In this document: positions 8,673 through 56,789 of the stretch, one piece after another
Numbering within the stretch: position 1 is the first letter of the stretch
How the letters are laid out: each line of letters starts with the position of its first letter
DNA from: an uncultured Acidaminococcales bacterium
GTDB taxonomy: Bacteria; Bacillota; Negativicutes; Acidaminococcales; Acidaminococcaceae
Direction of reading: 5' to 3'
Length of the DNA stretch: 64,000 nt
Assembly (NCBI GenBank): GCA_964293585.1
Contig: CAXYYS010000001.1
Location: forward strand, 5,755-69,754
Notes under the pieces: generated by a model
The model's database searches: none
What the model saw: only the letters and a program-made list of their open reading frames with translations
What the model was told of the DNA's origin: nothing
Translations under genes and position numbers: made by a program

Positions 8673-9547
8673 GTGAAGGCAGGGTTCTTAAAGCCTACAA
8701 CAGTTTTTATTACGTGGCCGCCGGCGGCGTAACTTACACCTGCAAGGTGAAGGGACGCATGAAACAGGAACGGTTTTCCCTGTGTCCCGGCGACCTGGTA
8801 ACTTTTGACCAGGACGGTACGGCGGGCATGATCACGTCCGTGCTGCCCCGGCGCAACTTTATGACGCGGCCCACGGTGGCGAACCTGGATGCGCTGGTGC
8901 TGACCATGGCGGTGGCGAAACCACTTTTCAGCCCGCTGATCCTGGATAAGCTGCTGGTGCTGGCGGCTACGCACAAGATGCCGGTGCTGCTGGCTTTGAA
9001 CAAGATGGATGCGGCCGTGCCGGAGGAGGCGCAGGCCCTGGTACAGATTTACCGGCAGGCCGGGTACCGGGTCTTTCCTGTCTCGGCTAAAACCGGCGCC
9101 GGCATCCCGGAACTGCAGGCGGCGCTGGCCGGTAAGATCACGGCTTTCGGCGGCCCCAGCGGTGTGGGAAAATCTTCCCTGATGAACGCCCTGGACCCGG
9201 AGCTGGCTCAGCAGACCGGCGCTTTAAGCGAAAAGATCAGCCGCGGCAAACACACTACCAGGTTTACGACCCTGGTACCTTTTAACGGCGGCTACCTGGC
9301 AGACACACCCGGGTTTGGCAATGTGTTCCTGGAAGGGGTGGAGCTGGGGGACCTGGCCGGTTATTTTCCGGAATTTGCGGCCTACGCACAGGAGTGTAAG
9401 TTTACTCCCTGTACTCATGACCATGAAAAGATTTGCGGCGTGAAAAACGCCGTGGCGGCAGGCAGGATTGCCCGCAGCCGTTATGCTTCGTATCTGGCCC
9501 TGCGGCAGGAACTTACCGCGGCCGGGGAAAGGATGTACCGCAAATGA
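8669..9547 (+). CDS. rsgA: Ribosome small-subunit-dependent GTPase A
   Basis: Circularly permuted GTPase motifs (NKMD ... GPSGVGKSS) and a C-terminal zinc motif CKFTPCTHDHEKIC. The GTG start overlaps the prkC stop (GTGA). Confidence 0.9.
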   Translation: MSEGRVLKAYNSFYYVAAGGVTYTCKVKGRMKQERFSLCPGDLVTFDQDGTAGMITSVLPRRNFMTRPTVANLDALVLTMAVAKPLFSPLILDKLLVLAATHKMPVLLALNKMDAAVPEEAQALVQIYRQAGYRVFPVSAKTGAGIPELQAALAGKITAFGGPSGVGKSSLMNALDPELAQQTGALSEKISRGKHTTRFTTLVPFNGGYLADTPGFGNVFLEGVELGDLAGYFPEFAAYAQECKFTPCTHDHEKICGVKNAVAAGRIARSRYASYLALRQELTAAGERMYRK

Positions 9548-10206
9548 TTAAGATTGCTCCGTCAATCCTCTCGGCAGATTTTTCTAAGTTGGGCGAGGAA
9601 ATTAAAAAGATTGAGGCGGCAGGTGCGGACTGGGTCCACATCGACGTCATGGACGGGAACTTTGTCCCTAACCTGACTTTTGGCGCTCCCGTGGTAAAAA
9701 AGCTGCGCCCGGTGACCCAGCTGCCTTTTGACTGCCACCTGATGGTGGAACATCCGGAAACTTATATTGATGCCTTTGTGGAAGCCGGCGCCGATATGAT
9801 CGTGGTCCATGCGGAAGCGACCCAGCATCTGCACCGCTGCCTGCAGGCAATTCATGCCCACGGCATTAAGGCCGGGGTAGCTTTGAATCCGGCCACCTCT
9901 TTGAGTACCATCGAGTGGGTGATGCCGAATGTGGATTTGTTTTTGCTGATGACGGTGAACCCGGGCTACGGCGGCCAGAGTTTTATCACAACCATGCCGC
10001 CCAAGATCACCCAGCTGCGGCGTATGTTGCAGGCGGCCGGGCTGAATACGGATATCGAGGTGGACGGCGGCATTAACAAAAAGACGGCGCCACTGGTAAT
10101 TGCGGCCGGGGCCAATGTGCTGGTGGCCGGGTCCTATGTGTACGGCGCGGCTGATACCAAAGAAGCCATCGCTACTTTGCGCAGCGGTTTAGGCGAGAAC
10201 TGCTGA
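9544..10206 (+). CDS. rpe: Ribulose-phosphate 3-epimerase
   Basis: N-terminus MIKIAPSILSADF, plus HIDVMDG and VDGG. ATG 9544 overlaps the rsgA stop (ATGA). The ORF-track start at 9433 is an out-of-frame overlap extension. Confidence 0.93.
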   Translation: MIKIAPSILSADFSKLGEEIKKIEAAGADWVHIDVMDGNFVPNLTFGAPVVKKLRPVTQLPFDCHLMVEHPETYIDAFVEAGADMIVVHAEATQHLHRCLQAIHAHGIKAGVALNPATSLSTIEWVMPNVDLFLLMTVNPGYGGQSFITTMPPKITQLRRMLQAAGLNTDIEVDGGINKKTAPLVIAAGANVLVAGSYVYGAADTKEAIATLRSGLGENC

Positions 10207-10244
10207 AGCCAGGTGCTTCACAGAATCTTCTCAGGTCGTGCTGT

Positions 10245-10273
10245 TGACAGTACCGGTACCACTCATTATAATG
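10245..10273 (+). promoter_or_regulatory. Consensus sigma-A promoter of the rib operon
   Basis: TTGACA (10245-10250), a 17-nt spacer, then TATAAT (10268-10273). Confidence 0.8.
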
Positions 10274-10288
10274 AATATTGTAAGAACG

Positions 10289-10394
10289 TCTTTGGGGTTG
10301 GGAGCGTTTCCCTACCGGCGGTAAAGTCCGCGAGCCTTCGGGCATGATCCGGTGCGATTCCGGAACCGACAGTATAGTCTGGATGAAAAAAGAC
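10289..10394 (+). promoter_or_regulatory. FMN riboswitch (RFN element)
   Basis: P1 is GTCTTT...AAAGAC. Conserved blocks are present: GGGAGCGTTTCCCTACCGGCGGTAAAGTCCGCGAGC, GGTGCGATTCCGGAACCGACAGTATAGTCTGGATG. It lies upstream of ribD. Confidence 0.9.
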
Positions 10395-10410
10395 AGGACT
10401 GGCTAAGACA

Positions 10411-10446
10411 AGCGGTAAACCCCACAGGGGGTTTGCCGCTTTTTTA
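10411..10446 (+). terminator. Riboswitch expression-platform terminator
   Basis: AGCGGTAAACCCC / GGGGGTTTGCCGCT stem followed by TTTTTT. Confidence 0.85.
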
Positions 10447-10545
10447 TATGGTAGGGAAGGCCGCTGCCGGAAAAGCTGCGGTAGTAGTAAAGCTGGAGGC
10501 CGTTGCCAGGCGGTGGCGGTCTTACAGGTAGAGGAGGCTGACAGG

Positions 10546-11649
10546 ATGACCGATTTAGAATATATGCAGTTGGCGCTGGAACTGGCCCGGCAGGCGGAAG
10601 GCGAAACCAGTCCCAATCCTATGGTGGGCTGCGTCATCACCGACGCGGCGGGGAACATCGTGGGCCGGGGTTATCATCACAAGGCAGGGGAAGCCCACGC
10701 CGAGGTGAATGCCCTGGCGGATGTCAGGAAACACAAAGCCATGCCCCATACGGCTTATGTGACCCTGGAACCCTGCAGCCATTTTGGACGGACCGGTCCC
10801 TGCTGCGATGCCTTGCTTAGGGCAGGTATTAAGCGGGTGGTAGCGGCCCAGGAAGATCCTAATCCCAAGGTGTGCGGCCAGGGTTTTGCCCGGCTCCGCG
10901 CCGGCGGGGTCCAGGTGGAAGTGGGGCTATGTGAGGCGGAAGCCCGCCGTTTGAACGAACATTTTTTACGCTGGGTCACCACCCGGCGTCCTTTCGTCAG
11001 CTTAAAGTATGCCATGACCCTGGACGGGAAACTGGCCACGGCCGCCGGTGACGGGCAGCAGGTCACTGGCAGGGAGGCCCATGTGGAGGCGCATTATTTG
11101 CGCAAGATCCATGATGCCATCCTGGTAGGTATCGGCACCGTCCTGGCAGACGATCCGGAACTGACCACCCGGCTGGTGCAAGGTAAAAATCCGGTGCGGA
11201 TCGTGCTTGACAGCCAGGCCCGTATCCCGCTCACAGCACAAGTTTTGCAGGGCGGCACGACCACGATTATTGTGGTGGGACCAGAGGCGCCGGCGGCTAA
11301 GCTGGAACTGTTAGCCAAGCTGCCGGAGGTAGAGGTTTTAACTTTACCGGCGCCGGCAGGTAAATTGGATTTAGGAAAACTTTTAGATATTTTAGGTGAG
11401 CGCAAGCTGACCAGTCTGCTGGTAGAAGGCGGCAGCCAGGTCCACGGCAGTTTTGTGGATGCCGGACTGGTGGACAGGATTTATGCTTTTATCGCTCCCA
11501 AGGTGGTAGGCGGCGCAGCAGCACTGCCGCCCATTGGCGGTACGGGTCTGGCGGCTATGGCGCCGGGACTGCCGGTAGCCGTGGATACCACCAGGGTTTT
11601 AGGTAAAGATTTTTTGATCACAGGCCGGGTGACGGCCGGGGAGGTCTGA
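10546..11649 (+). CDS. ribD: Bifunctional diaminohydroxyphosphoribosylaminopyrimidine deaminase / 5-amino-6-(5-phosphoribosylamino)uracil reductase
   Basis: Deaminase motifs HAE and PCxxxxxxxxC (LEPCSHFGRTGPC), then a reductase domain. ATG 10546 follows GAGGAGG. Confidence 0.92.
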   Translation: MTDLEYMQLALELARQAEGETSPNPMVGCVITDAAGNIVGRGYHHKAGEAHAEVNALADVRKHKAMPHTAYVTLEPCSHFGRTGPCCDALLRAGIKRVVAAQEDPNPKVCGQGFARLRAGGVQVEVGLCEAEARRLNEHFLRWVTTRRPFVSLKYAMTLDGKLATAAGDGQQVTGREAHVEAHYLRKIHDAILVGIGTVLADDPELTTRLVQGKNPVRIVLDSQARIPLTAQVLQGGTTTIIVVGPEAPAAKLELLAKLPEVEVLTLPAPAGKLDLGKLLDILGERKLTSLLVEGGSQVHGSFVDAGLVDRIYAFIAPKVVGGAAALPPIGGTGLAAMAPGLPVAVDTTRVLGKDFLITGRVTAGEV

Positions 11650-11650
11650 A

Positions 11651-12331
11651 ATGTTTACAGGATTAGTAGCGGAGCTGGGCACGGTGCTCAGCCTGACGGA
11701 AGATGCACAGACCTGCCGCCTGGCCGTGCGGGCCCGGCAAGTTTTACCGGGTCTCAAACTGGGCGACAGCATAGCGGTGAACGGTGTGTGTCTGACGGTG
11801 GTGGTCTTAACCGGCAGCAGTTTTACAGCGGATGTGATGCCGGAAACTTTGCGCAGCAGTAATTTAGGCCAGCTGAAACCTGGCAGTAAGGTAAACCTGG
11901 AGCGCACGCTGCGTCCGGCGGACGGGCTGGATGGTCATCTGGTGCTGGGTCATGTGGAAGGCATCGGTACCATTGCCGGTATTACCAGGGAAGGCAATGC
12001 GGAAGTGTTCCGCATCACCGCGCCGGCAGATTTGCTGCGGTATATTATCCCCAAGGGTTCTATCGCCGTGGACGGCATCAGCCTGACCGTGACCACGGTG
12101 ACAGATCAGGATTTTGGCGTTTCCCTGATTCCCACCACCAGGAAAAGTACGACCCTGGGAGAGAAGGGCGTGGGAGGACAGGTAAACCTGGAAACCGATA
12201 TCCTGGCCAAGTATGTGGAGCGGATGCTGGCGGCGCGTTTTAGTCAGACGGCCGCAGCCGGCGGGTCTCGCCGTACCCAGGTGGAAAACGCAGGTCTGAC
12301 CGCGGAATTTTTAGCCAAAAATGGTTTTTAA
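11651..12331 (+). CDS. ribE: Riboflavin synthase (alpha chain)
   Basis: N-terminus MFTGLV.E.G and a duplicated lumazine-binding repeat ([13 protein letters not shown] / [12 protein letters not shown]). Confidence 0.92.
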
Positions 12332-12411
12332 AAGCAGCAGGTCCTGCTGGTCCGGCAGGCCTGGCTGTACAGATAAACAGTAATTTTACAGAGAGAACAG
12401 AGGAGTTCAAG

Positions 12412-13632
12412 ATGGAAAATTTTAAATTTAACACGGTGGAAGAAGCTATAGCCGCTATCAAGGCAGGCCAGATGGTCCTGGTTACTGACGATGAGGACCG
12501 GGAGAACGAGGGCGACCTGATTACCAGCGCCAAACTCTGCACCCCGGAGCTAGTAAATTTTATGGCCAGGGAAGCCCGGGGGCTGATCTGTATGCCGGCC
12601 GCGCCGGAAATTATGGATAAGCTGCAGTTTGGCGCCATGGTGGCCAATAACACGGATAACCACGAGACAGCTTTTTCCGTGTCGGTGGATTATAAGGATA
12701 CCACCACCGGCATCAGCGCTTACGAGCGGGCCCGTACCATGCAGATGTGCGCGGACCCGGCGGTCCAGCCCGGCGATTTTCGCCGTCCCGGTCACTGCTT
12801 TCCGCTACGTTCCCGGGCAGGCGGCGTCTTAGTCCGCACCGGCCACACGGAAGCGACCACGGATTTGTGTAAGCTGGCCGGTCTGCCGCCGGTAGGCTTG
12901 TGCTGCGAGATCATGAAGGACGACGGCCATATGGCCCGGGTGCCGGATCTGATTAAATTTGCCCGGAAACACCAGCTGGTGTTTATTACGGTGGCAGAAC
13001 TGGTAGCCTACCGTAAGGCTCACGAAAAGATGGTGCACCGGGTAGCGGAAGCAGCCCTGCCCAGCAAGTACGGCACCTTCCGTATCATCGCCTACGAAAA
13101 CGACCTGGACGACCTTTGCCATGTGGCTCTGGTCAAGGGCGACGTCAAAGGAAAGAAAGATGTGCTGGTGCGGGTTCATTCCGAATGTCTCACCGGCGAT
13201 GCTTTCGGCAGTTTGCGCTGCGACTGCGGCGACCAGCTGGCCACGGCTTTAAAGATGATTGAAAAAGAAGGCTGCGGCGTGGTGGTGTACATGCGGCAGG
13301 AAGGCCGCGGCATCGGCCTGGCCAATAAGATTCGCGCCTACGCCCTGCAGGATCAGGGTCTGGATACGGTGGAAGCCAATGTACGTTTAGGTTTTGCCCC
13401 GGATTTGCGGGACTACGGTCTGGGCGCCCAGATCCTGGCGGATTTAGGCCTGACCAGTATCCGGCTTATCACCAACAACCCGGCGAAACGGGCGGGACTT
13501 TCCGGGTACGGCATCACGGTTTCGGACCGGGTGCCCATCATCATGGAGCCCAACCATTATAACGAACATTATCTGGAAACCAAGGAAGACAAGATGGGGC
13601 ATAAGCTGCATCTGCCTCAGGAAGGGAAGTAA
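12412..13632 (+). CDS. ribBA: Bifunctional 3,4-dihydroxy-2-butanone-4-phosphate synthase / GTP cyclohydrolase II
   Basis: DHBP synthase motifs ([15 protein letters not shown]) and GCH-II motifs ([19 protein letters not shown]). Confidence 0.93.
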
Positions 13633-22892: not shown

Positions 22893-23681
22893 ATGGAAAC
22901 ACCAAAAGATGTGCAACAACAAACAAAGATACAGCCTGCACCGGTACCGGTAAAGCAGCCATGGTATGAGAACCCGGACGGCGTGACCAAGATTGTGGCC
23001 CTGGTCCTGCTGGTAATTTTGTGCGCGGTGGTGTATTTCTGCTGTGGTAATTTTGTGGAAAAAACTTTCCGCCTGGCCATTAGCGGCAATGTGTCCGCCC
23101 TGGCGGCTTATCTGCGTTCCTTCGGCCCCTGGGCCGTGGCTATCAGTTTCTTTATCGATGTGCTGATCAACTCAGGCAGCGTCTTTCCCTCCATCTTCAT
23201 GTCCACGGCTAACGGCCTTATCTTCGGCCTGCCTCTGGGCATCTTAATTTCCTGGCTGGCAGAGACGACCGGCGTGGTTATCAGCTTTCTGCTCATGCGT
23301 TTCTTTTTCCGCAACAGTGCGGAAGGTATCATTAAAAAAGCGCACCGGTTGCAGGACATTGATAATGCCAGCGCCAAGAACGGCATCTACTGGATGACTT
23401 TTGCCAGGGCGCTGCCGTATTTTCCTTCCGGCATCCTGACGGCGGTGGGCGCCGTGAGCCGGATGAGCATCAAGGATTATGTTATTGCCAACCTGATTGG
23501 TAAGTTCCCTTCCACAGCCCTGGAAGTCGTTATCGGCCATGACGTGGTAAACCTGCGGGCGCATAGCGTGCGGCTTACGGTGTTGGTCATCGTGGCAGCG
23601 GCAGTTTTTTACCTGATTAACAAATATGTGTTGCGCAAAAAGGCGGCGGAGGACCCCAAACCGGCGCCACCCGAAGAATAA
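22893..23681 (+). CDS. TVP38/TMEM64 (DedA-related, SNARE-associated) family membrane protein
   Basis: Multi-TM protein. Motif pattern F....P.....S...G.IFG and LPYFPSGI....GAV, typical of the family. Confidence 0.7.
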   Translation: METPKDVQQQTKIQPAPVPVKQPWYENPDGVTKIVALVLLVILCAVVYFCCGNFVEKTFRLAISGNVSALAAYLRSFGPWAVAISFFIDVLINSGSVFPSIFMSTANGLIFGLPLGILISWLAETTGVVISFLLMRFFFRNSAEGIIKKAHRLQDIDNASAKNGIYWMTFARALPYFPSGILTAVGAVSRMSIKDYVIANLIGKFPSTALEVVIGHDVVNLRAHSVRLTVLVIVAAAVFYLINKYVLRKKAAEDPKPAPPEE

Positions 23682-23740: not shown

Positions 23741-24952
23741 TTAATCCAGCTTGGCGGCCAGGTCCGGGAAGATACTGAGGCTGCGTTTTAAGATGCCGTG
23801 CATGTAGGCGATGGCCAGGCCGTAGTTGGTCATAGGAATCTGCTGGGCCGCAGCTTCACGGTAGCGGTGCTGCATCTCTTTTTCGTTCAGCATGCAGCCG
23901 CCACAGTGGATGATCAGTTGGTAGCGGCTCAGGTCGGCGGGGAATTCACCGCCGCTGGTCCAGGCAAACTGCAACTTTTTGCCGGTAAAGTTTGTCACCC
24001 AGCCGGGCATCTTTACGGTGCCGATATCATCGCACTGGCGGTGATGGGTACAGCCTTCGGAAATCAGGACCTGGTCTCCGTCCCGGAGTTTTTTTAAGGC
24101 CAGGACACCGGCTACGGCGCCGGCCAGGTTGCCTTTATGCCGGGCCATGAGGATGGAGAACGAGGTTAACGTGATGGCTGCCGGCGTGTCGGCATTTACC
24201 TTTTTAAAAGCCTGGCTGTCCGTGATGACCAGCTGGGGCGGCGTTTTTAAAGCAGCCAGGGTCTGACGTAAACTATCTTCTTTCGTGACCAGAGCATGGG
24301 CGCCGGCGTCCAGGATATCCCGGATGGTCTGCTGCTGGGGCAGGATGAGCCGTCCTTTGGGAGCGGCGCTGTCCACCGGTACCACCAGGACTACCATGTC
24401 GCCTGGATGCAGCAGGTCGGCCACGATGGGTACGGTCTGGGTCTCGGGATTAAGCCGGGCCAGCGTTTCTTTTAAGTCTTTGATGCCGGCTTTGGTGGTG
24501 CTGCTGACCTGGCAGCTGACGACGCCGGGCACTTCCGGCAGGTTCAGGTCGCCGGCCAGATCGCATTTATTGTAGACCAGGACCACGGGCAGTTGGCGTG
24601 CCCGGACCTGATCCAGGAATTGCTTTTCTTCCTGGCCCAGTCCTGCGGCAGCTTCTACTACCAGGACTACGATGTCTGTTTTTTGGAGAACCTGATAAGC
24701 TTTCCGGACGCGCTGGGTTCCCAGTTCGCCTTCATCATCAATGCCCGGGGTATCGATAAACATTACCGGTCCCAGGGGGAGAAGTTCCATGGCCTTGTAA
24801 ACCGGGTCCGTGGTGGTGCCCAGGACGGGGGAAACGATGGCCAGTTCCTGGCCGGTCAGGGCGTTGATGAGGCTGGACTTACCGGCATTGCGTTTACCAA
24901 AGATACCAATATGCACCCGCTCTGAGGCAGGGGTGGCGTTTAAGCTGCTCAT
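23741..24952 (-). CDS. hydF: [FeFe]-hydrogenase H-cluster maturation GTPase HydF
   Basis: GTPase motifs GKRNAGKSS, DTPG and NKCD. C-terminal cluster-binding motif CTHHRQC ... HCGGC. ATG 24952 lies 7 nt after AAGGAAG. Confidence 0.85.
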   Translation of the reverse strand: MSSLNATPASERVHIGIFGKRNAGKSSLINALTGQELAIVSPVLGTTTDPVYKAMELLPLGPVMFIDTPGIDDEGELGTQRVRKAYQVLQKTDIVVLVVEAAAGLGQEEKQFLDQVRARQLPVVLVYNKCDLAGDLNLPEVPGVVSCQVSSTTKAGIKDLKETLARLNPETQTVPIVADLLHPGDMVVLVVPVDSAAPKGRLILPQQQTIRDILDAGAHALVTKEDSLRQTLAALKTPPQLVITDSQAFKKVNADTPAAITLTSFSILMARHKGNLAGAVAGVLALKKLRDGDQVLISEGCTHHRQCDDIGTVKMPGWVTNFTGKKLQFAWTSGGEFPADLSRYQLIIHCGGCMLNEKEMQHRYREAAAQQIPMTNYGLAIAYMHGILKRSLSIFPDLAAKLD

Positions 24953-25081
24953 AGTAACACTTCCTTGCAAGTTGACTGAATTTGTTTTATGATACGTACG
25001 ACGATAGTCTGTTGCTACCGTACTTTTATATTATACAACGGGCGGGCCTGGGAGAAAAGACCTAACCGGGGAGGAAAGAAG

Positions 25082-26233
25082 ATGCCGGTGCCACGTAAAA
25101 TTTTAATCATGGCCGCGCCTTTGGGCACGGGACATAAGATGGCGGCGGCTACCCTGGCCAGGGAAGCTGCCCGGCAGGGCTTTGCCGTGGTGACGGCGGA
25201 TGTGTTTAGTTTTTTGCCGGGCTGGCTGGGACGGCTGGTGCTGGCTGGCTATAGCCTCCTGTTGGCCTGGTGGCCGGCAGGCTACGCTATGATGTACGGC
25301 TGGGGTAACCGCCAGGCTGGTTCCCTGCGGCTGCGCTCCTGGCTGAACCAGTTTTTGGCTAGCCGGGCCCGGGCTTTTTTGACCCGGGAAAAACCGGAGC
25401 TGGTTCTGGTAACTCATGCCACGGCAGCCGGCATCCTGACAGCTTATAAGGCCAGGTACGCACCGGACTTGTATCTGGCCGGGGTCGTTACGGATTTTGT
25501 GGTCCACCGGTGGTGGCTTTATAAGGGTATCGATACTTATTTTACGGCTACGGAGACGGCGGCGGCTCAGTTGCGGCAACTGGCGGCGCAAACTTTACCC
25601 GCCCTGCCGGAAGTTCTGGTCACCGGTATTCCCATCCGCCGGCATTTCAGCCGCATGACCTATCTGTATGCCCGGGAACAGTTCCACTGGGAACCTGGGA
25701 CCTTGGTGTGCCTGCTTTTAGGCGGCGGGGCCGGGCTGCTGCCCATGGAAGACATCGTGGCAAAAATCCGGGCGGCGTATCCTAAACATTTACAGCTGGT
25801 GGCCGTTACGGGAACGAATACGGATCTGGCCGCCAGTCTCAGCAAATATCCCGGCATTACTGTCTACGGGTACACGGACCAGCTGCCGGATCTTTTGATC
25901 GGGGCGGACGTGGTGGTAACCAAGGCCGGAGGTTTAACTTTGGCCGAGGCGGTGGCTGCCGGTCCGGAAATTATTATCTACAAGCCGCTGCCGGGACAAG
26001 AGCAGGGCAACACGGCCTACTTTACCGGTCAGGGGCTGGCCAGTCTGGCCCGGACACCGGAAGAGGTGCTGCGCTATCTGCAAAATTATCAGCGCCAGCC
26101 GGAACCGGAACGGGCGGCCCGGCTGCATAAACGGCAGGAGGCGGCCCGGCCTTTGGCGGCTCAGGATATTATCCGCCGGCTGCGGGAAAAAGAAGCGGCG
26201 GCGCCCGGCAAACAAGCTGGAAATTTTTTGTGA
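25082..26233 (+). CDS. MGDG-synthase-family glycosyltransferase (diacylglycerol glycosyltransferase, UgtP-like)
   Basis: N-terminus KILIMAAPLGTGHKMAAATL, plus a GT28-type C-terminal domain (VVTKAGGLTLAEA). ATG 25082 follows GGGGAGG. Confidence 0.75.
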   Translation: MPVPRKILIMAAPLGTGHKMAAATLAREAARQGFAVVTADVFSFLPGWLGRLVLAGYSLLLAWWPAGYAMMYGWGNRQAGSLRLRSWLNQFLASRARAFLTREKPELVLVTHATAAGILTAYKARYAPDLYLAGVVTDFVVHRWWLYKGIDTYFTATETAAAQLRQLAAQTLPALPEVLVTGIPIRRHFSRMTYLYAREQFHWEPGTLVCLLLGGGAGLLPMEDIVAKIRAAYPKHLQLVAVTGTNTDLAASLSKYPGITVYGYTDQLPDLLIGADVVVTKAGGLTLAEAVAAGPEIIIYKPLPGQEQGNTAYFTGQGLASLARTPEEVLRYLQNYQRQPEPERAARLHKRQEAARPLAAQDIIRRLREKEAAAPGKQAGNFL

Positions 26234-38258: not shown

Positions 38259-40367
38259 ATGGAAGTATTAGTTGCCCAACCCTGCGGTTTCTGTTACGGC
38301 GTGAAACGAGCGGTGGCCCTTGCTGAAAAAGCAGCGGCAGACCAGGTGCAGGGCGGTACTTATGGGCCCTTGATCCATAACCCGCAATTCATAGAGGCTT
38401 TAACCCAAAAAGGTATTCCCTGTAAAGACAGCCTGGAAGCTTTCAGACCCGGAGAAACAGTGATCATTCGTTCTCATGGGGTAGGGCCTGAAGTTTACGC
38501 AAAAGCCCGCTCTTTACAGTTAAACATTCTGGACGCTACCTGTCCCAATGTGCGCCTGGCGCAGCAAAAAGCCCATCAGGCAGCTTTAGATGGTTTTTTA
38601 CCCATCATCATCGGTGAAAAAAATCATCCGGAAGTAAAAAGTATTTTAGAATGGGCAGGAAAAACAGGTATCGTTGTAGAATATAATAAGGATATCTCAA
38701 TGATACCCACCACAGGCAGGTATGCGGTAATCATCCAGACGACCTTCGAACTGGCAAGGTTTGAAGAACTTCTGGCACTGATAAAGCAGACTCATCCCGG
38801 TGAGTATCGAGTAGAACGTACCATCTGTTTAGCTACGTCCCAGAGGCAGGAAGCCGCGGTTGAACTGGCAAAGCTGGTTGATGCGTTCGTCGTCATTGGT
38901 GGCAGGAATAGTGCTAATACCCGGCACTTGTTCCAACTGGTAAGTGAGCATTGTTCTAAGTGTTACCAGGTAGAAACTGCTAATGAGCTGAATCCCACAG
39001 TATTCCAGGGGTGCAAGAAAATCGGCATTACGGCCGGAGCCTCGACTCCGGACCGGCTAATTAAGGAGGCTGTAAGTGTGATGGAAGAGATTAAAGAAAA
39101 GTCTGAGTTTGAAAAGATGCTGGATGCGAGCATGGAGGATGTGAATGTATTCCCCGGCAAGCTCGTTAAAGGCAAAGTTATTATGAAAGATAAAGATGGT
39201 GCCTATGTTAATTTCGGTTACATGCGCGAAGGCATGATCAACTGGAGAGACTGGACTGCCAGCGAAGATACAGACGCCACCGCGGCTTCCGTTAATATCG
39301 GCGATGAAGTTGAAGCTGTTGTAGTTCCCGGTACCGCTAAGGAAGAATTTGTACGTTTGAGCAAGATCAGAGCTGAAAAAGAAGCTGCCTGGAAATTTGT
39401 GCAGCCTCTGGCTGAAGGCGAAAAGCGTCCCTGCACTGTTAAGGTGCTGCGCGTGATTAAGAGCCGCGGCAAAGACCGTGAGGCTCCCAAGCGTGTGGTT
39501 GGTCTGGGCGTTGCTGTGGAAGGCGTGGAAGGTTTCATGCCTGCTTCTCATGTAGAGCTGCGTCATATCGAAGACTTTACGCCGTATGTTGGCCAGGAAC
39601 TGCAAGCTGAGATTATCGAAGTAGATGTGGAGAAGAAACGTATCGTCGTTTCCCGCCGCGACCTGCTGAAGGCCGAGAAGGAAAATAAGCACCAGGAATG
39701 GTTAGCTAACCGTGAATCCCGCATCGCTGCTGCTAAAGAAGCCCGTGCTGCCCGCGAAGAAGCTGCTTATGCTTCCGTAGCTGAAGGCCAGGTTTATGAA
39801 GGCAAGGTTGTAAAGGTTGCCGACTTCGGCCTGTTCGTAGAAATTGGCGACGGTCTGGTGGGTCTGGTACATAACAGCGAGCTTTCCTACGACCGCAGCA
39901 AGAAAGCTGCAGACGTGGCTAAGGAAGGCGATACCGTGAAGGTCTTCGTCAAGAAGATTGACCAGGAGAACCACCGTGTGTCCTTGTCCATCAAGGCTAC
40001 GCAGGAAGATCCCTGGGTAGCAGCTGCTGCCGGCTTTGAAGAAGGCCAGCTGGTAGAAGGTACCGTAGACAGGTTCCTGCCTTTCGGTGCTTTAGTAAAA
40101 TTGAATGATACCGTAGAAGGTATGATCCACGTTTCTGAGATTAGCGAAGAACGCGTAGAGAAGCCCGAAGATGTGCTGAAGACCGGCCAGGTTGTGAAAG
40201 TGAAGATCATTAAGGTGGACAGAAGCCACCGTAAGATCGGCCTTTCCATTACCAAGGCTAAGGAAGATGCAGCTCAGGCCGAATACAATTCTTATATCTC
40301 GGAAGAGAAACCGGCCCTGTCCAACAATAACATGAAGGAACAGCTGGAAGAATTAAAGAAGAACTAA
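38259..40367 (+). CDS. ispH: Fusion protein: 4-hydroxy-3-methylbut-2-enyl diphosphate reductase (IspH/LytB) fused to four S1 RNA-binding domains (start 38259 ATG or 38244 TTG)
   Basis: N-terminal ~285 aa carry the IspH Cys motifs (GFCYGV, DATCPNV, TICLAT, ITAGASTP). The C-terminal ~420 aa contain repeated S1 folds (G..V.G.V....G..V..G...G.I). Single uninterrupted ORF. Confidence 0.88.
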   Translation: MEVLVAQPCGFCYGVKRAVALAEKAAADQVQGGTYGPLIHNPQFIEALTQKGIPCKDSLEAFRPGETVIIRSHGVGPEVYAKARSLQLNILDATCPNVRLAQQKAHQAALDGFLPIIIGEKNHPEVKSILEWAGKTGIVVEYNKDISMIPTTGRYAVIIQTTFELARFEELLALIKQTHPGEYRVERTICLATSQRQEAAVELAKLVDAFVVIGGRNSANTRHLFQLVSEHCSKCYQVETANELNPTVFQGCKKIGITAGASTPDRLIKEAVSVMEEIKEKSEFEKMLDASMEDVNVFPGKLVKGKVIMKDKDGAYVNFGYMREGMINWRDWTASEDTDATAASVNIGDEVEAVVVPGTAKEEFVRLSKIRAEKEAAWKFVQPLAEGEKRPCTVKVLRVIKSRGKDREAPKRVVGLGVAVEGVEGFMPASHVELRHIEDFTPYVGQELQAEIIEVDVEKKRIVVSRRDLLKAEKENKHQEWLANRESRIAAAKEARAAREEAAYASVAEGQVYEGKVVKVADFGLFVEIGDGLVGLVHNSELSYDRSKKAADVAKEGDTVKVFVKKIDQENHRVSLSIKATQEDPWVAAAAGFEEGQLVEGTVDRFLPFGALVKLNDTVEGMIHVSEISEERVEKPEDVLKTGQVVKVKIIKVDRSHRKIGLSITKAKEDAAQAEYNSYISEEKPALSNNNMKEQLEELKKN

Positions 40368-40376
40368 GTTTTAGAC

Positions 40377-40410
40377 GGGGGCGTTGTGCACAGCAGCGCC
40401 CTCTTTTTTT
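40377..40410 (+). terminator. Intrinsic terminator after ispH-S1
   Basis: GGGCGTTG...CAGCGCCC stem followed by TCTTTTTTT. Confidence 0.75.
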
Positions 40411-40435
40411 ACAGTAACGGAAGCAGGTGCAGCAG

Positions 40436-41515
40436 ATGAAAACAAGGGAACAGAGAAAGCTGGAACATCTTCACTACGCCCTTACCCTGGGCGACAGCAA
40501 ACAGAGCGCCGGTTTTGAGGATGTACAGTTCCTGCATGATTGTTTAAGTCAGGTGAATCCCGACCGGGTGGACCTTACCACCAGGGTGGCGGGTATTAAA
40601 CTGGAAAGCCCGCTGTTTATTGACGCTATTACCGGTGGTGCCGATGCGGTGACCACGATTAATAAACAGCTGGCCCGGGTGGCGGCCCGGACCGGGATAG
40701 CCATGGCTGTGGGCAGCCAGTACGGGGCGGTACGGGACCGGAGCTCGCAAAAAAGTTTCGCCGTAGTCCGCAAGGAGAATCCCGACGGGGTAATCTTTGC
40801 CAATGTCAGCGCCCTGGCTACGCCGGCAGAGGTAGAACAGGCGGTAGCGATGCTGAACGCAGCCGCGGTAGAAATCCATCTGAATGTGGCCCAGGAATTA
40901 TTCATGCCCGAAGGCGATCATGACTTTGCGGCTTTATGGACTAATTTGCAGCGCTTGCGGGAACAGGTTACGGTGCCTATTATCGTTAAGGAAACGGGGT
41001 GCGGCATGGCGGCTGCTCAAATCCAGCAGTTACAGGCAGCCGGTTTTAACTGCCTGAATGTGGCCGGTGCCGGTGGCACCAGTTTTGCCGCTATTGAAAC
41101 TGCCCGGAGCGGCGATGTAAGACGGCGCCGTTTTGCCAACTGGGGTATTCCTACAGTCTGGAGCTTGTTAGAAGCACGCCGGGTAGTGGCTACGGGTACG
41201 TCCATCCTGGCCACGGGCGGTATCCGGGATGGCTGGCAGGCAGCCAAAGCCCTGGCGTTAGGCGCTGCTGCCGTGGGTATGGCCGGTAACATCCTGGCCT
41301 TGCTGGAGCCGCCGGAAGGTTTAGCGGCAGGCAGCAGTAACGAAATTAATGCGGTAGAACGTACGATTACCACGGTTGAAGAGATGCTGGCGGATCTTGA
41401 GGACATCATGGTCCTGACCGGTGCCGCCACCATTAAAGATTTACAGCAGGTACGCCTGATCTTTACTGGACGCACCCTGGCCTATTTACAAAACAGGAGC
41501 CTGGAACATGCATAA
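40436..41515 (+). CDS. fni: Type 2 (FMN-dependent) isopentenyl-diphosphate delta-isomerase
   Basis: Motifs RKLEHL, MAVGSQ, VKETG.G and GGIR.G.D.AKALALGA, typical of IDI-2. Confidence 0.88.
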   Translation: MKTREQRKLEHLHYALTLGDSKQSAGFEDVQFLHDCLSQVNPDRVDLTTRVAGIKLESPLFIDAITGGADAVTTINKQLARVAARTGIAMAVGSQYGAVRDRSSQKSFAVVRKENPDGVIFANVSALATPAEVEQAVAMLNAAAVEIHLNVAQELFMPEGDHDFAALWTNLQRLREQVTVPIIVKETGCGMAAAQIQQLQAAGFNCLNVAGAGGTSFAAIETARSGDVRRRRFANWGIPTVWSLLEARRVVATGTSILATGGIRDGWQAAKALALGAAAVGMAGNILALLEPPEGLAAGSSNEINAVERTITTVEEMLADLEDIMVLTGAATIKDLQQVRLIFTGRTLAYLQNRSLEHA

Positions 41516-42560
41516 TTTTGCCTTACCGCTTTTTTTGCAAGTGAAACGCAATGCCGTGGGGCAATTGCGGGAGAACTTAAAATTATATCTGCCGGAACTG
41601 GTGCAGCGCCGGTTTCTGGTGCTGACCACGGCCGGTCTCTTACAAACGCTGGCGCCCAAGGTAAAAATTTTGCTGGCACAAATACCTGACTACCAGGTGG
41701 AGACGGTGGCCGCCAGTTCTTTCGATTTTGCGGTCCAGGTGGCCAAGCAGGTAAGCATGGGCGGATTTGGCGCCGTGCTGGGACTGGGTGGCGGCACCGC
41801 TTTGGATACGGCCAAATATGCTGCCTATGTGGCAGGGGTTCCTTACATCGCCATTCCTACCACGCTGAGCAACGATGGCGTTTGTTCGCCGGTCAGCGTT
41901 CTGTTTGCAGAGGGCGGGCGTAAACATAGTTTTACCAGTAAGATTCCCGACGGCTTGTTAATAGACACCGATATCATCTTAAAGGCGCCCCGGGTGCTTA
42001 TGGAAGCCGGAGTGGGCGATATCCTGAGCAATTATACGGCTTTGTTTGACTGGCGGCTGGCCTGCCGGGAAAATGGCGAACGTCCTAACGATTTTGCCTA
42101 TCTCTTAAGCGCGCAGGCCGTGGATGCCTTGCTGCATTCCCGGGTACAGACTTTTGAAAGCATCGAGGGCGTCAAGATGCTGGCCGAAGCTCTGGTCCTG
42201 GGAGGACTCAGCATGTCTATCGCCGGGAATTCCCGTCCCTGCAGCGGCAGTGATCATTTGTTCTGCCACGCCCTGGACGAACTTTACGATCACCACCTGC
42301 CCCATGGCATCGTGGTGGCAATCGGAACTATCGGCGCCTGCATCCTGCAGGGTCGTCCGTACCAGCCGCTGGTAGCTTTTTTAAAGGCCTACGGTATTGA
42401 TATTAATCCGGAGCACAGAGGCATCACCAGGGAGATGTTTATCAAAGCCTGGCTATATGCGCCGACCGTGCGGAAAGAACGTTATACGATCCTGAATAAA
42501 ACTCGGTTGACGGCAGCAAAATTTAATAAGATTTATGATGTGATGTTAAGTGAATGTTAA
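41508..42560 (+). CDS. sn-glycerol-1-phosphate dehydrogenase-like enzyme (AraM/EgsA branch of the iron-containing ADH / glycerol dehydrogenase superfamily)
   Basis: Motifs GLGGGTALDTAKYAA, PTTLSNDGVCSP and SGSDHLFCHALD ... LPHG (metal ligands). ~350 aa. The start overlaps the idi2 stop by 8 nt (ATGCATAA). Confidence 0.6.
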   Translation: MHNFALPLFLQVKRNAVGQLRENLKLYLPELVQRRFLVLTTAGLLQTLAPKVKILLAQIPDYQVETVAASSFDFAVQVAKQVSMGGFGAVLGLGGGTALDTAKYAAYVAGVPYIAIPTTLSNDGVCSPVSVLFAEGGRKHSFTSKIPDGLLIDTDIILKAPRVLMEAGVGDILSNYTALFDWRLACRENGERPNDFAYLLSAQAVDALLHSRVQTFESIEGVKMLAEALVLGGLSMSIAGNSRPCSGSDHLFCHALDELYDHHLPHGIVVAIGTIGACILQGRPYQPLVAFLKAYGIDINPEHRGITREMFIKAWLYAPTVRKERYTILNKTRLTAAKFNKIYDVMLSEC

Positions 42561-42572
42561 GGAGGAGGGTTT

Positions 42573-42998
42573 ATGGAATTTTTAAAGGTGGATGAACGGC
42601 ATTATCTGGTGCGCCTGGTACGGGGTGAGGAAATCGTGGCGTCTTTAAAGACCCTGGCCCTGCAGGAAAAGATTAAGCTGGCCATGGTCCAGGGATTGGG
42701 TGCTATTAATGACCTGACCGTGGGCGTCTTCGATACGGCGACCAAGGAATACAAGGCTAACCATTTTACCGGTGCTTTTGAGATGTTATCCCTGACAGGA
42801 ACTATCGACACTATGGACGGCGCATTCTACAGCCATTACCATATTGCCGTAGGCGATAAGGACGGGCATGCCTGGGGCGGACATTTGAACGCCGCCTATA
42901 TCAGTGCTACCTGTGAATTGATCCTGACCATCCTGCCCGGACAGATCGACAGGTTTAAGGATCCCCAGGTGGGCTTGAACTTGTGGAAGCTGCACTAA
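42573..42998 (+). CDS. PPC (DUF296) domain protein
   Basis: Matches the PPC/DUF296 pattern: Y.VRL..GEEI...L...A.......A.V.G.GA......G.FD.....Y....F.G..E.LSL.G.I ... HLH. Confidence 0.65.
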   Translation: MEFLKVDERHYLVRLVRGEEIVASLKTLALQEKIKLAMVQGLGAINDLTVGVFDTATKEYKANHFTGAFEMLSLTGTIDTMDGAFYSHYHIAVGDKDGHAWGGHLNAAYISATCELILTILPGQIDRFKDPQVGLNLWKLH

Positions 42999-43064
42999 AC
43001 ACGTCAGTTAAGTGTGACGCCGGTTTGAAAGCCGGTTCTCTAAAAAAATAGTGTGTCTCATTAA

Positions 43065-43099
43065 AACACCCCGCTCAGCAGTAGCTGCAGCGGGGTGTT
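43065..43099 (-). terminator. Intrinsic terminator of the minus-strand lipase operon
   Basis: AACACCCCGCT / AGCGGGGTGTT 11-bp stem. The U-tract is on the minus-strand side (TTTTAA). Confidence 0.75.
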
Positions 43100-43102
43100 G
43101 TG

Positions 43103-43852
43103 TCAGGACTTATGTTTGTGTTCGTGGTACAGGTAAAGGGCAAAGAGCAAGACCAAGATGATGCCGCCGCCGTAAGCAGCTTTTTGTGCCAGGGGACTGA
43201 GAGGTTTGCCTCCTTGAGCTTCACGCATCTGTTGCATCTGTACTTCCGGTTCCGGCAGCAGATAGATGATATTGTCCACTACTTTTTTGGTATCTGCATC
43301 AATGAGGGGCTTTTTATCTTTGGTACCGCTGCCGCAGACCAGGATTACTGTCTGGTCGCGGATCGTACCGATGATATGTACGTATAAACCGGCGCCATAG
43401 GTACCGTCAGCAATGGCATACCAGGCTGCTTTTGTATTATAACGGGAGATGTCGCCGACTTTGATATTGTAACGTTCCCACATGTTCTGCTTAAAAGAAT
43501 TAATATAAGACAAATTACTGAACAAGTTTTCGTGCAGACGCAGGTCAAAGATGTCCAGGGTATAAGAGTTCACGGCGGTATAGATTTTAATCTCGGTGCC
43601 GGTCTTAGGATTATAGGCATCCAGGTCCGGATCGGGTACGGTAGTATAAGGCGGCAGCTGTTTATGGAAAGCTGCCAGCTCATCCAGGGAGTTTTGGGTG
43701 GCGGCGTCCGGCTGGACCACGATATAGCCTTCAGGGAAAGAAGTCTTGGTATCCGTGCCGGGAATCAGCAGGGGCCCGGCGGCATTGGCCGAGACCAGCC
43801 CCTGGCCACTAAACATCAGCAGTAAGGCTAAGACCCAGAAAAATTTTTTCAT
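43103..43852 (-). CDS. Hypothetical exported protein with an N-terminal signal peptide and a C-terminal TM anchor
   Basis: Signal MKKFFWVLALLLMFSGQGLVSANA/AG. C-terminal GGGIILVLLFALYLY followed by HEHKHKS. The start overlaps the lipase stop (TAATG). Confidence 0.6.
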   Translation of the reverse strand: MKKFFWVLALLLMFSGQGLVSANAAGPLLIPGTDTKTSFPEGYIVVQPDAATQNSLDELAAFHKQLPPYTTVPDPDLDAYNPKTGTEIKIYTAVNSYTLDIFDLRLHENLFSNLSYINSFKQNMWERYNIKVGDISRYNTKAAWYAIADGTYGAGLYVHIIGTIRDQTVILVCGSGTKDKKPLIDADTKKVVDNIIYLLPEPEVQMQQMREAQGGKPLSPLAQKAAYGGGIILVLLFALYLYHEHKHKS

Positions 43853-45333
43853 TACCAGTTCTGTATCCTTTCTTTATTGAGGAAGGGAAGTTGGGCTGCT
43901 AAATCTTTTTGGCAGTTCAGCATATCATACATGGCTGTCTGAACCACGCCTTTATCATAGGTAACATGACTGCCGCTGGCATTCATGGTGAGCAGGCTGC
44001 CGTCGGGGATATTAAAGACCGCCTGGTTCAGGGTGGTGTAATATTTAGCGGTTTGTCCCGCTTGTTTCAGTCCGGCTTCCAGGACAATCAGGTAGCGGGC
44101 TTTTTTGGCCGTGGCCAAGGTTAACAGTTCTTGTAAATTTGACGTCTCCAACTGGTCTTCCGCACTGGTGAGAAAAGTATAACGCGGCAGCAGGCTTTTG
44201 TATTCATGGATGACAAAGCGCAGGATATCGGGCGTGTAGCGGGTGTCGGCCTCTTTGCCTAACGGACGGGCTACCACGGCTACCAAAGGCGCGGTACCGG
44301 TTAATTGTTCTTCCGGGGTGTGGTGCAGGTAGCCCAAGGCAATACCCTCATCCACGGTGTCGTAGTAATATTTTACCGCATAGTCATAATACAGGGAAAT
44401 AGGATGGGACATATCCGAATATTTATTGGACAGGGGAAAGATAATCTCCTTACCGAACTGGGTATAGTTATTGCCGGTGGCATACAGGATCTTGGGAACG
44501 ATATCATGGGTATTACGTACCCGGAGCAGGTTGATCTTGTCGCCGTATTCCTTGGCAAAGGCTTCATTACCCACAGCCGGGGCACCGAAGGTAACCACCG
44601 GGAGCTGGTCTTTGTTCACGCCCATGGCTACCAGGCGTTCCGCAAATAAAGTCGCAGCCGCGCCGCCCAGGCTATGGCCGGTAATCAAAACCCGCAGCTT
44701 GGGATTATGTTGGAGCAGGTTTACCAGGTCATCGGGTTTACCATCCAGGTTTAAATCAACCTTAAGGTCAAAACCGGAACGTACATACTGGTCAAAACCG
44801 CGATGGACCTTGGGGTAGTTTCCTTTTTTGGCGGGTAAGCTGGCAATCCGGGCAAACTCGGCCGGCGTCTTGCCGCCATAATTAACCTGGTCAAATTTAA
44901 AATTTTGCCGCCAGTCGCCCAGGGTACTGCTGCCGCGAAAGGCGATGATACCCAGATCCGTGCCGTCCGGCTGAGCGGGATGCGTCGCAATCATAAAGTT
45001 AGTGGTGACGCCATCTTTTTTCACAATCTGGGGACTGATTTCCCAGCCATACTCGCCCAGATATTCATATTCCAGGGCGGAAGCTTTATTTTTATACGTA
45101 CCGGCGCAGGCACCTGCCGCCAGAGAGATAAGGCGGGCATTATCATAAGCCGTGGCAAACTGAGAGCGGGTCAGTTGCGGCGTCTTCTTTACCACCGGAG
45201 TTTTTACGGTCGCCGTAGCGGCTGGTACGGTAGCTGACACTGGCTGCGTGACAGTACTGGCTGCCAGTACCGGTGCTTGCCAGAAACTGAGTACGCAGCA
45301 GGTTAAGATGAGAGCATGGTTAAGTTTGTTCAT
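43852..45333 (-). CDS. Secreted class-3 (fungal-type) lipase family protein with an extra ~170-aa C-terminal domain
   Basis: Signal peptide MNKLNHALILTCCVLSFWQAPVLA/AS. Nucleophile elbow ITGHSLGGA, followed by a THDIVP Asp and a SHP His. ATG 45333 follows GAGGAG. Confidence 0.75.
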   Translation of the reverse strand: MNKLNHALILTCCVLSFWQAPVLAASTVTQPVSATVPAATATVKTPVVKKTPQLTRSQFATAYDNARLISLAAGACAGTYKNKASALEYEYLGEYGWEISPQIVKKDGVTTNFMIATHPAQPDGTDLGIIAFRGSSTLGDWRQNFKFDQVNYGGKTPAEFARIASLPAKKGNYPKVHRGFDQYVRSGFDLKVDLNLDGKPDDLVNLLQHNPKLRVLITGHSLGGAAATLFAERLVAMGVNKDQLPVVTFGAPAVGNEAFAKEYGDKINLLRVRNTHDIVPKILYATGNNYTQFGKEIIFPLSNKYSDMSHPISLYYDYAVKYYYDTVDEGIALGYLHHTPEEQLTGTAPLVAVVARPLGKEADTRYTPDILRFVIHEYKSLLPRYTFLTSAEDQLETSNLQELLTLATAKKARYLIVLEAGLKQAGQTAKYYTTLNQAVFNIPDGSLLTMNASGSHVTYDKGVVQTAMYDMLNCQKDLAAQLPFLNKERIQNW

Positions 45334-45430
45334 GATGATTACTCCTCGTTGTAAGTCAAATGTAAAAGGCAGTTCTTGTTCAATTATACACATCTCTTTC
45401 GGAGAGCGCCACAAATATTTTGGCGTTGTA

Positions 45431-56647: not shown

Positions 56648-56667
56648 TCACTTGTAATTAAATATGG

Positions 56668-56772
56668 CTCATCAAGAGCGGTGGAGGGACTGGCCCGGTG
56701 AAACCGCAGCAACCATTAGCGTCTATGCAGGCGCTAAAAGGTGCTAAGTCCTGCGAGTAATCGTGAGATGAG
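56668..56772 (+). promoter_or_regulatory. SAM-I riboswitch (S-box)
   Basis: P1 is CTCATC...GATGAG. Conserved core: AAGAGCGGTGGAGGGACTGGCCCGGTGAAACCGCAGCAACC ... GGTGCTAAGTCCTGC. It lies upstream of metK. Confidence 0.9.
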
Positions 56773-56789
56773 ATTGCAAGAAATTGTAA

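Follow-up and report, generated by a model that had tools for sequence, protein, structure and literature searches.

A glycerol-1-phosphate dehydrogenase-like gene coupled to idi2 in a three-gene operon of an Acidaminococcaceae bacterium

When the gene for an isoprenoid building-block enzyme overlaps one for a relative of the archaeal glycerol-1-phosphate (G1P) dehydrogenases, does the overlap mark a pathway joining isoprenoids to G1P, or only a compact gene order peculiar to one lineage? The question is raised by a 64-kb stretch of contig CAXYYS010000001.1 (the window in what follows), where the terminator of an ispH-S1 fusion gene is followed by idi2, a gene resembling those for G1P dehydrogenase (G1PDH), and a gene for a PPC/DUF296 protein, an order evident from both the open reading frame (ORF) map and the raw sequence. 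A preliminary description of this DNA had taken the unit as a hint of an isoprenoid-G1P ether-lipid or polyprenyl-glyceryl pathway, with the PPC protein as third partner. We conclude that idi2, the G1PDH-like gene, and the PPC gene form a three-gene operon in an Acidaminococcaceae (Negativicutes) bacterium from wastewater, and that the middle protein, judged by its sequence, belongs to an EgsA-like subfamily which most probably reduces dihydroxyacetone phosphate (DHAP) with NAD(P)H to sn-G1P. The wider pathway drawn from the gene order fares less well, as set out below.

Profile, structure, and alignment comparisons support the assignment of the middle protein to the G1PDHs and not to the GldA-type glycerol dehydrogenases, as had been proposed. 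Specifically, i) the protein has an Fe-ADH_2 domain (PF13685, E = 1e-29; DHQS-like/Fe-ADH_2 fold) and, among NCBIfam models, scores 245.9 bits with the archaeal G1PDH family NF002022 versus 90.5 with GldA and 27.7 with dehydroquinate synthase (DHQS); ii) its strongest sequence matches in the PDB are 5fb3 (P. calidifontis G1PDH, 6e-47), 3ce9 (C. acetobutylicum, 5e-46), and 4rgq (M. jannaschii G1PDH, 3e-43), GldA enzymes matching more weakly at 5e-22 and above and 9h4x, confirmed to be B. subtilis AraM, at 8e-22; iii) the protein shares 39% of its residues with the G1PDH of M. jannaschii and 37.5% with that of P. calidifontis, compared with 24.8% for E. coli GldA and 21.6% for AraM; and iv) an AlphaFold 2 model of the protein (predicted local distance difference test, 92.8) finds 3ce9 and the archaeal G1PDHs as its best Foldseek matches, with template modelling (TM) scores of 0.78-0.90. 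Close relatives carry the label 'glycerol-1-phosphate dehydrogenase [NAD(P)+]' at JGI and 'iron-containing alcohol dehydrogenase family protein' at NCBI.

The three motifs quoted in the preliminary description (GLGGGTALDTAKYAA, PTTLSNDGVCSP, and SGSDHLFCHALD) can each be read in the 350-residue translation, and the contrast drawn there between D-G..S-P in this protein and D-A-P in E. coli GldA (PTIASTDAPCSALS) stands in an alignment of the middle protein with three solved G1PDH-type proteins, E. coli GldA and AroB, and five G1PDH sequences from the literature (four of these five came from the optical character recognition text of a supplement, AraM later being replaced by the exact 9h4x sequence). 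Every column invariant in the seven accepted G1PDHs is kept in the middle protein, and GldA departs from these columns at D-G..S-P, D-W, S-R-P-x-S-G, the second His (H254), R322, and R325, the two Arg residues lying in R-x-x-R-Y-T-I-L. The predicted metal ligands D171, H250, and H266 are invariant in a 17-sequence family alignment and fall in the G1PDH ligand columns, the Asp/His/His set being one already described for these enzymes (PMC6737245). Retention of the conserved Arg common to DHAP-using G1PDHs argues for a phosphorylated substrate; and from 37-39% identity to proven enzymes, together with the invariant residues kept, we infer a metal-dependent, NAD(P)H-linked reductase of DHAP to sn-G1P.

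In a neighbour-joining tree which included the exact AraM sequence, and for which bootstrap support was obtained by bipartition counting, 17 Firmicute sequences form one clade (99%), joined by 3ce9 at 64% and, next outward, by the archaeal and Streptomyces G1PDHs. The middle protein is accordingly placed by its sequence in a Firmicute-wide subfamily, apparently sister to archaeal EgsA; its own sister clade includes Clostridia and Bacillaceae proteins at 45-46% identity (100% bootstrap). Bacterial G1PDH homologs in Firmicutes have been documented before (PMC6431249, PMC5059525).

The genes on either side are what they had been taken to be. Its profile matches mark the product of gene 1 as a genuine type 2 isopentenyl-diphosphate (IPP) isomerase: IDI-2 scores 332.7 bits with TIGR02151 against a cutoff of 281.3, residues 6-344 spanning profile positions 1-337 of 338, and also matches PF01070 FMN_dh (E = 1.8e-19), a TIM barrel of the FMN-dependent alpha-hydroxyacid-dehydrogenase type. 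The PPC protein matches PF03479 with 109.4 bits (E = 1.7e-31; residues 9-122, profile positions 1-116 of 117), and its nearest solved structures, 2dt4, 2h6l, and 3htn, are each uncharacterised. The placing of a compact unit behind the ispH-S1 terminator agrees with the gene coordinates and the hairpin, and the overlap of the idi2 stop with the next ATG and the 12-nt gap before the third gene can both be read in the sequence.

How far does this arrangement extend? The exact middle protein is found on many independent metagenome contigs, where the three-gene arrangement is identical and idi2 is likewise called as 359 amino acids; the runs holding the locus are mostly wastewater metagenomes, and the closest genome is an Acidaminococcaceae metagenome-assembled genome (94% identity, locus L007). 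We fetched 80 genome loci with the family profile and then located the window's neighbours in them. The order cmk-plsC-ispH/S1-idi2-G1PDH-like recurs in seven distinct loci in addition to the window's own (L001), and the pairing is restricted to these (L007, L008, L010, L015, L021, L029, and L058), all of the window's sublineage (90% bootstrap). Where idi2 meets the G1PDH-like gene, the spacing is -8 nt for L007 and L008, as for L001, and -4 nt (ATGA) for L015, L029, and L058; L010 and L021 have a gap of +32 or +38 nt. An overlap is kept in 5 of the 7 related loci, with IDI-2 identity at 51-59% in relatives other than L007. Among the loci compared, the PPC gene follows the G1PDH-like gene only in the window species and L007, and in Succiniclasticum-like loci its position is occupied by an M18 aminopeptidase gene.

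Other relatives hold the same genes apart. Phascolarctobacterium has the order cmk-plsC-ispH/S1-idi2 as in the window, with idi2 12 nt behind ispH-S1 and glmS next; it possesses both idi2 and the G1PDH-like gene, unlinked. In another relative idi2 still lies behind ispH-S1, followed by recG, and the G1PDH-like gene is elsewhere. Because idi2 stays with ispH in relatives which have no linked G1PDH-like gene, the stable association is that of ispH with idi2; to judge from the sequences compared, the G1PDH-like gene was appended once behind an ancestral ispH-S1-idi2, in one sublineage only, and the PPC gene came later still. The tight coupling stressed in the preliminary description is therefore genuine as an overlap but confined to one sublineage of Acidaminococcaceae; the idi2-G1PDH-PPC unit is not a conserved one, and the partnership of idi2 with the G1PDH-like gene is not obligatory. 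The coupling to idi2 seen in some Acidaminococcaceae seems to be new to the literature.

The G1PDH-like gene of Phascolarctobacterium has as its neighbour a DUF218 gene, which it abuts or overlaps by 1-4 nt and for which NCBIfam gives the envelope biogenesis factor ElyC as the best match (L087:8001-9811, and also L009, L011-L013, L020, L023, and L042), the pair lying upstream of rpsB-tsf-pyrH-frr...uppS-cdsA-dxr, with uppS-cdsA-dxr a few kb away; an alternative context in this genus places the gene behind one of the DedA/VTT type. The DUF218/ElyC-like pairing may tell more about function than the pairing with idi2.

When flanking ORFs were clustered across the 80 genomes, no universal operonic partner of the G1PDH-like gene emerged, the partners being lineage-specific. 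In the sister clade (L027, L028, L030, and L091) the gene belongs to a cassette of TagF-type glycerophosphotransferase/LicD, G1PDH-like, NTP_transferase, and HAD-IIA genes, with overlaps of 4-14 nt; L028, on a short contig, has the nucleotidyltransferase only, and the L091 cassette (7049-10580) sits inside a polysaccharide locus. L041 has such a cassette as well. Such cassettes suggest that the G1PDH-like enzyme may provide activated glycerol phosphate for wall polymers. Lachnospiraceae copies adjoin genes for a ZIP zinc transporter, FeoB, an amylase, a Mur-type ligase (8-nt overlap), DUF6056, and an HAD or phosphopantetheinyl transferase protein. Where the contexts have any common theme, it is the cell envelope.

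The ZIP zinc transporter gene is adjacent to the G1PDH-like gene in 11 Lachnospiraceae-type loci (L035, L037, L038, L040, L046-L048, L050, L051, L056, and L061), where it is immediately upstream, often with FeoAB near. This adjacency may have to do with the enzyme's need for metal.

Metatranscriptome contigs cover the unit and bridge both its internal junctions, 41388-41557 that of idi2 with the G1PDH-like gene and both 42443-43576 and 42461-42783 that of the G1PDH-like gene with the PPC gene, which fits co-transcription. The distance from the terminator hairpin to the idi2 ATG is about 25-30 nt, and a gap of ~25 nt leaves no space for a sigma-70 promoter, so that read-through is the likeliest source of transcripts; most transcription of the unit would thus come from ispH-S1, past its terminator. 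One metatranscriptome contig (run X24) starts at 40397, in the 3' half of the terminator stem, with Illumina adapter before the start, which may mark the 5' end of an RNA or a site of processing, or be due to chance.

What, then, would the enzyme be for? We hold it moderately probable, on present sequence comparisons, that the middle protein is a DHAP reductase supplying sn-G1P for envelope or membrane lipid synthesis, with no dedicated PcrB-type ether-lipid pathway. Gene 2 would carry out the metal-dependent reduction; with lower confidence, its product would be taken up by stereo-promiscuous PlsY/PlsC acyltransferases to give a fraction of G1P-backbone phospholipids, and/or be used in glycerophosphate decoration. 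Since PlsY and PlsC accept G1P, and lipids from Pectinatus and Megasphaera, which are Negativicutes, are reported to contain both glycerophosphate enantiomers (PMC13400652), bacteria making G1P are likely to place some of it in acyl phospholipids, and we regard acyl phospholipids or glycerophosphate decoration, with modest confidence, as its most likely fate. A very unlikely alternative, although the one closest to the preliminary description, is that IDI-2 and the G1PDH-like enzyme feed a PcrB/GGGPS-type transferase to form polyprenyl-glyceryl phosphate, the PPC protein being a third partner, in a pathway resembling either the acetyl-carrier route of Bacillus AraM-PcrB-YvoF-LhaT or an archaeal-type ether lipid. 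ElyC-like and DedA families are linked to polyprenyl-phosphate handling, and the coupling of the Phascolarctobacterium gene to them, a few kb upstream of uppS-cdsA-dxr, speaks for such a pathway, as do the position of the unit inside a plsC-ispH-idi2 lipid/isoprenoid cluster and the overlaps kept at low IDI-2 identity; moreover, the Bacillus G1P-prenyl pathway is real and its function is now known (PMC12345273). No credible PcrB/GGGPS homolog could be found, however, in the 64-kb window or in ~97 related loci by tblastn with B. subtilis PcrB (in a sequence that agrees with PDB 3vzx at 100% identity) and a second PcrB, the only matches having E values of at least 0.06; nor did Pfam reveal PF01884 or UbiA domains in 31 larger window ORFs and the table for the central 21 kb, the ORFs scanned being housekeeping genes. 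The PcrB ether-lipid pathway is assigned to Firmicutes at large by some authors (PMC7888582) and to Bacillales alone by one paper (PMC8262930). With idi2 anchored to ispH, the PPC gene not conserved, no linked prenyltransferase, and relatives pointing to envelope glycerophosphate, the step once taken from adjacency to an isoprenoid-G1P ether pathway is not supported; on account of the conserved idi2 overlap, a connection with isoprenoid metabolism retains a small yet genuine probability.

Two further explanations were weighed. The sister-clade cassettes in polysaccharide loci recall pneumococcal gtp1-gtp2-gtp3, assigned to CDP-2-glycerol synthesis (PMC1391919; CDP, cytidine diphosphate), and would allow a Gtp1-like enzyme producing glycerol from dihydroxyacetone, or glycerol phosphate for CDP-activated glycerol destined for capsule, lipopolysaccharide, or teichoic-type decoration; we think this decidedly unlikely for the window, where the genes close to the unit include none for a nucleotidyltransferase or for HAD-IIA, TagF, or LicD proteins, where the Arg conserved in DHAP-using G1PDHs is kept, and given that in Acidaminococcaceae the gene stands among core housekeeping genes and not in a variable polysaccharide locus. 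It is rather unlikely, too, that there is no functional link whatever among the three genes and that their adjacency is historical, insertion having brought them behind a strong housekeeping operon and a compact genome alone accounting for the overlap: the pairing did arise once, in a single clade, the gene after the G1PDH-like one does vary between PPC and peptidase M18, and Phascolarctobacterium does keep idi2 and the G1PDH-like gene unlinked, but the stop/start overlaps persist in several species-level genomes at family-level divergence, which suggests selection for co-expression. More speculative, and on balance unlikely, is a broader version of the G1P reading, in which Acidaminococcaceae, the abundant gut species Phascolarctobacterium faecium included, would carry the EgsA-like gene as a core gene and make sn-G1P constitutively, for heterochiral phospholipids via PlsY/PlsC or for a polyprenyl-glyceryl carrier formed by a non-PcrB transferase; if it were true, the idi2 overlap would mark a real isoprenoid-G1P link in a diderm Firmicute.

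Several points tell against the reading that we prefer, that of a DHAP reductase supplying sn-G1P. The middle protein, at 245.9 bits, does not reach the 413 bits that NF002022 sets as its curated cutoff for an EgsA equivalog, nor do family members P0027, P0080, and P0105 at 239-257 bits, and we have therefore filed it in a G1PDH-like sister subfamily and not as an EgsA equivalog; the deep nodes of the tree have 55-64% support, and the placement of AraM is unstable; 3ce9 is without two of the conserved Arg residues, so that functions vary in the wider group, and its substrate, by the same alignment, may differ from that of true G1PDHs; a 2010 study in J Bacteriol by Wang et al. is said to have assayed Gtp1 as a reductase of dihydroxyacetone, not of DHAP; the retention of the overlap at an IDI-2 identity of about 53-59% could be real functional coupling to isoprenoid metabolism; and, as regards transcription, the metatranscriptome contigs are unstranded and possibly include DNA, and none of them covers 40330-40396 or crosses the ispH-S1 terminator.

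Table 1. Features of the idi2/G1PDH-like/PPC locus, in window coordinates.
Feature	Position	Strand	Basis
ispH-rpsA(S1) fusion: (E)-4-hydroxy-3-methylbut-2-enyl diphosphate (HMBPP) reductase + S1 domains, 707 aa	38244..40367	+	PF02401 + four S1 domains
Intrinsic terminator-like hairpin + T-run, between ispH-S1 and idi2	40377..40410 (hairpin + T7, 40377-40403)	+	Scan + fold
idi2: type 2 FMN-dependent isopentenyl-diphosphate isomerase, 359 aa	40436..41515	+	TIGR02151, PF01070
8-nt overlap of idi2 and G1PDH-like gene, ATGCATAA	41508..41515	+	Sequence reading; translational coupling
G1PDH-like (EgsA-like) predicted NAD(P)H-dependent dehydrogenase, 350 aa	41508..42560	+	NF002022, PF13685, alignment, model
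12-nt spacer GGAGGAGGGTTT with GGAGG, Shine-Dalgarno for PPC gene	42561..42572	+	Sequence reading
PPC/DUF296 protein, 141 aa	42573..42998	+	PF03479
Structured region between PPC gene and convergent minus-strand gene 43103-43852	43019..43099		RNA fold

The borders of the unit are listed in Table 1. The ispH-S1 fusion scores 638.4 bits with NF000907 against a cutoff of 624, and its terminator has a stem of 11 pairs, 7 of them GC, with TTTTTTT directly after. For idi2 the start is ATG 40436, an upstream GTG at 40427 being open as well, and the stop is TAA 41513-41515; the G1PDH-like gene runs from ATG 41508 to a stop at 42558-42560. The structured region behind the PPC gene folds with -46 kcal/mol (z = -7.0 versus shuffles), and on the minus strand a strong stem at 43065-43099 is followed by TTTTAATG; it is probably a bidirectional terminator. 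An Rfam scan revealed no regulatory RNA at the three-gene unit. Recent horizontal insertion of the unit was considered and rejected, GC content and skew being without anomaly.

Convergent with the unit, on the minus strand (43103-45414), are genes for a secreted Lipase_3-domain protein of ~493-520 residues and then for a 249-residue protein which has a signal peptide, ends in a hydrophobic C-terminal tail, and matches no Pfam family; L007, the nearest relative, is alone in sharing this pair. Elsewhere in the window an FMN riboswitch (RF00050, 101.6 bits, 10284-10398) lies upstream of ribD-ribE-ribBA (10513-13632), and directly behind this riboflavin operon is a gene for a protein with a PTP-like phytase/dual-specificity phosphatase domain (PF14566, 13638-14717). 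Upstream of the topA-trmFO region are genes for a DedA/VTT-domain membrane protein (22893-23681), for HydF on the minus strand (23741-24970), and for a glycosyltransferase resembling monogalactosyldiacylglycerol synthase (24989-26233), a candidate glycolipid synthase. An S-adenosylmethionine (SAM) riboswitch (RF00162, 81.4 bits, 56666-56774) precedes metK; the automatically called ORF start at 56741 falls within its aptamer, so that metK must truly begin at some point downstream of there.

We wish to be clear about what has been gained. The finding is a homolog in a lineage-specific gene arrangement, a candidate for biochemistry and not evidence for a new pathway. Production of G1P by bacteria nevertheless matters for the 'lipid divide' that separates them from archaea: both glycerophosphate enantiomers occur in certain Gram-positive bacteria and Negativicutes, and recent work knows of no bacterial source of G1P other than AraM (PMC13400652). 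The EgsA-like subfamily, widespread in Clostridia, Bacillaceae, and Acidaminococcaceae, could be another such source and, if G1P is really made, would account for heterochiral lipids, or for envelope polymers containing G1P, among bacteria common in the gut and rumen.

Comparison with known systems places the locus among several relatives, none of them identical to it. The ispH-S1-idi2 module is shared with Phascolarctobacterium, but there the two genes are separated by a 12-nt gap and followed by glmS, whereas the window has a terminator hairpin in between and two extra genes behind. The best structural match is C. acetobutylicum NP_348253 (3CE9; TM 0.90, with a full-length sequence match), a protein deposited as 'glycerol dehydrogenase' and, to our knowledge, uncharacterised; it differs in having only 29% identity, S-S-P in place of S-R-P, and Lys in place of R322. 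Gtp1-Gtp2-Gtp3 of S. pneumoniae (serotype 15 and 23F capsules) form a gene triad like the sister-clade cassette, a homology drawn from gene context; the window, unlike that triad, is without nucleotidyltransferase and HAD-IIA partner genes. The archaeal EgsA enzymes (M. jannaschii 4RGQ/4RGV and P. calidifontis 5FB3) share with the middle protein the fold (TM 0.78-0.86), the Asp/His/His site, and the motifs GGG, D-G..S-P, D-W, S-R-P-x-S-G-S-(E/D)-H, and R-x-x-R-Y-T-I-L, but the middle protein lies in a separate Firmicute clade, under the EgsA cutoff, and in a bacterial host. B. subtilis AraM (9H4X) is likewise a Firmicute G1PDH homolog with G1PDH-specific motifs, yet it is further from the middle protein than are the archaeal enzymes, and differs from it in being Ni-dependent, in carrying insertions, and in its location in the ara operon. 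Even so, the Bacillus AraM-PcrB-YvoF-LhaT route, in which G1P is converted to heptaprenylglyceryl phosphate and then to an acetyl carrier for lipoprotein N-acetylation (PMC12345273), provides a conceptual precedent for the bacterial use of G1P together with isoprenoids.

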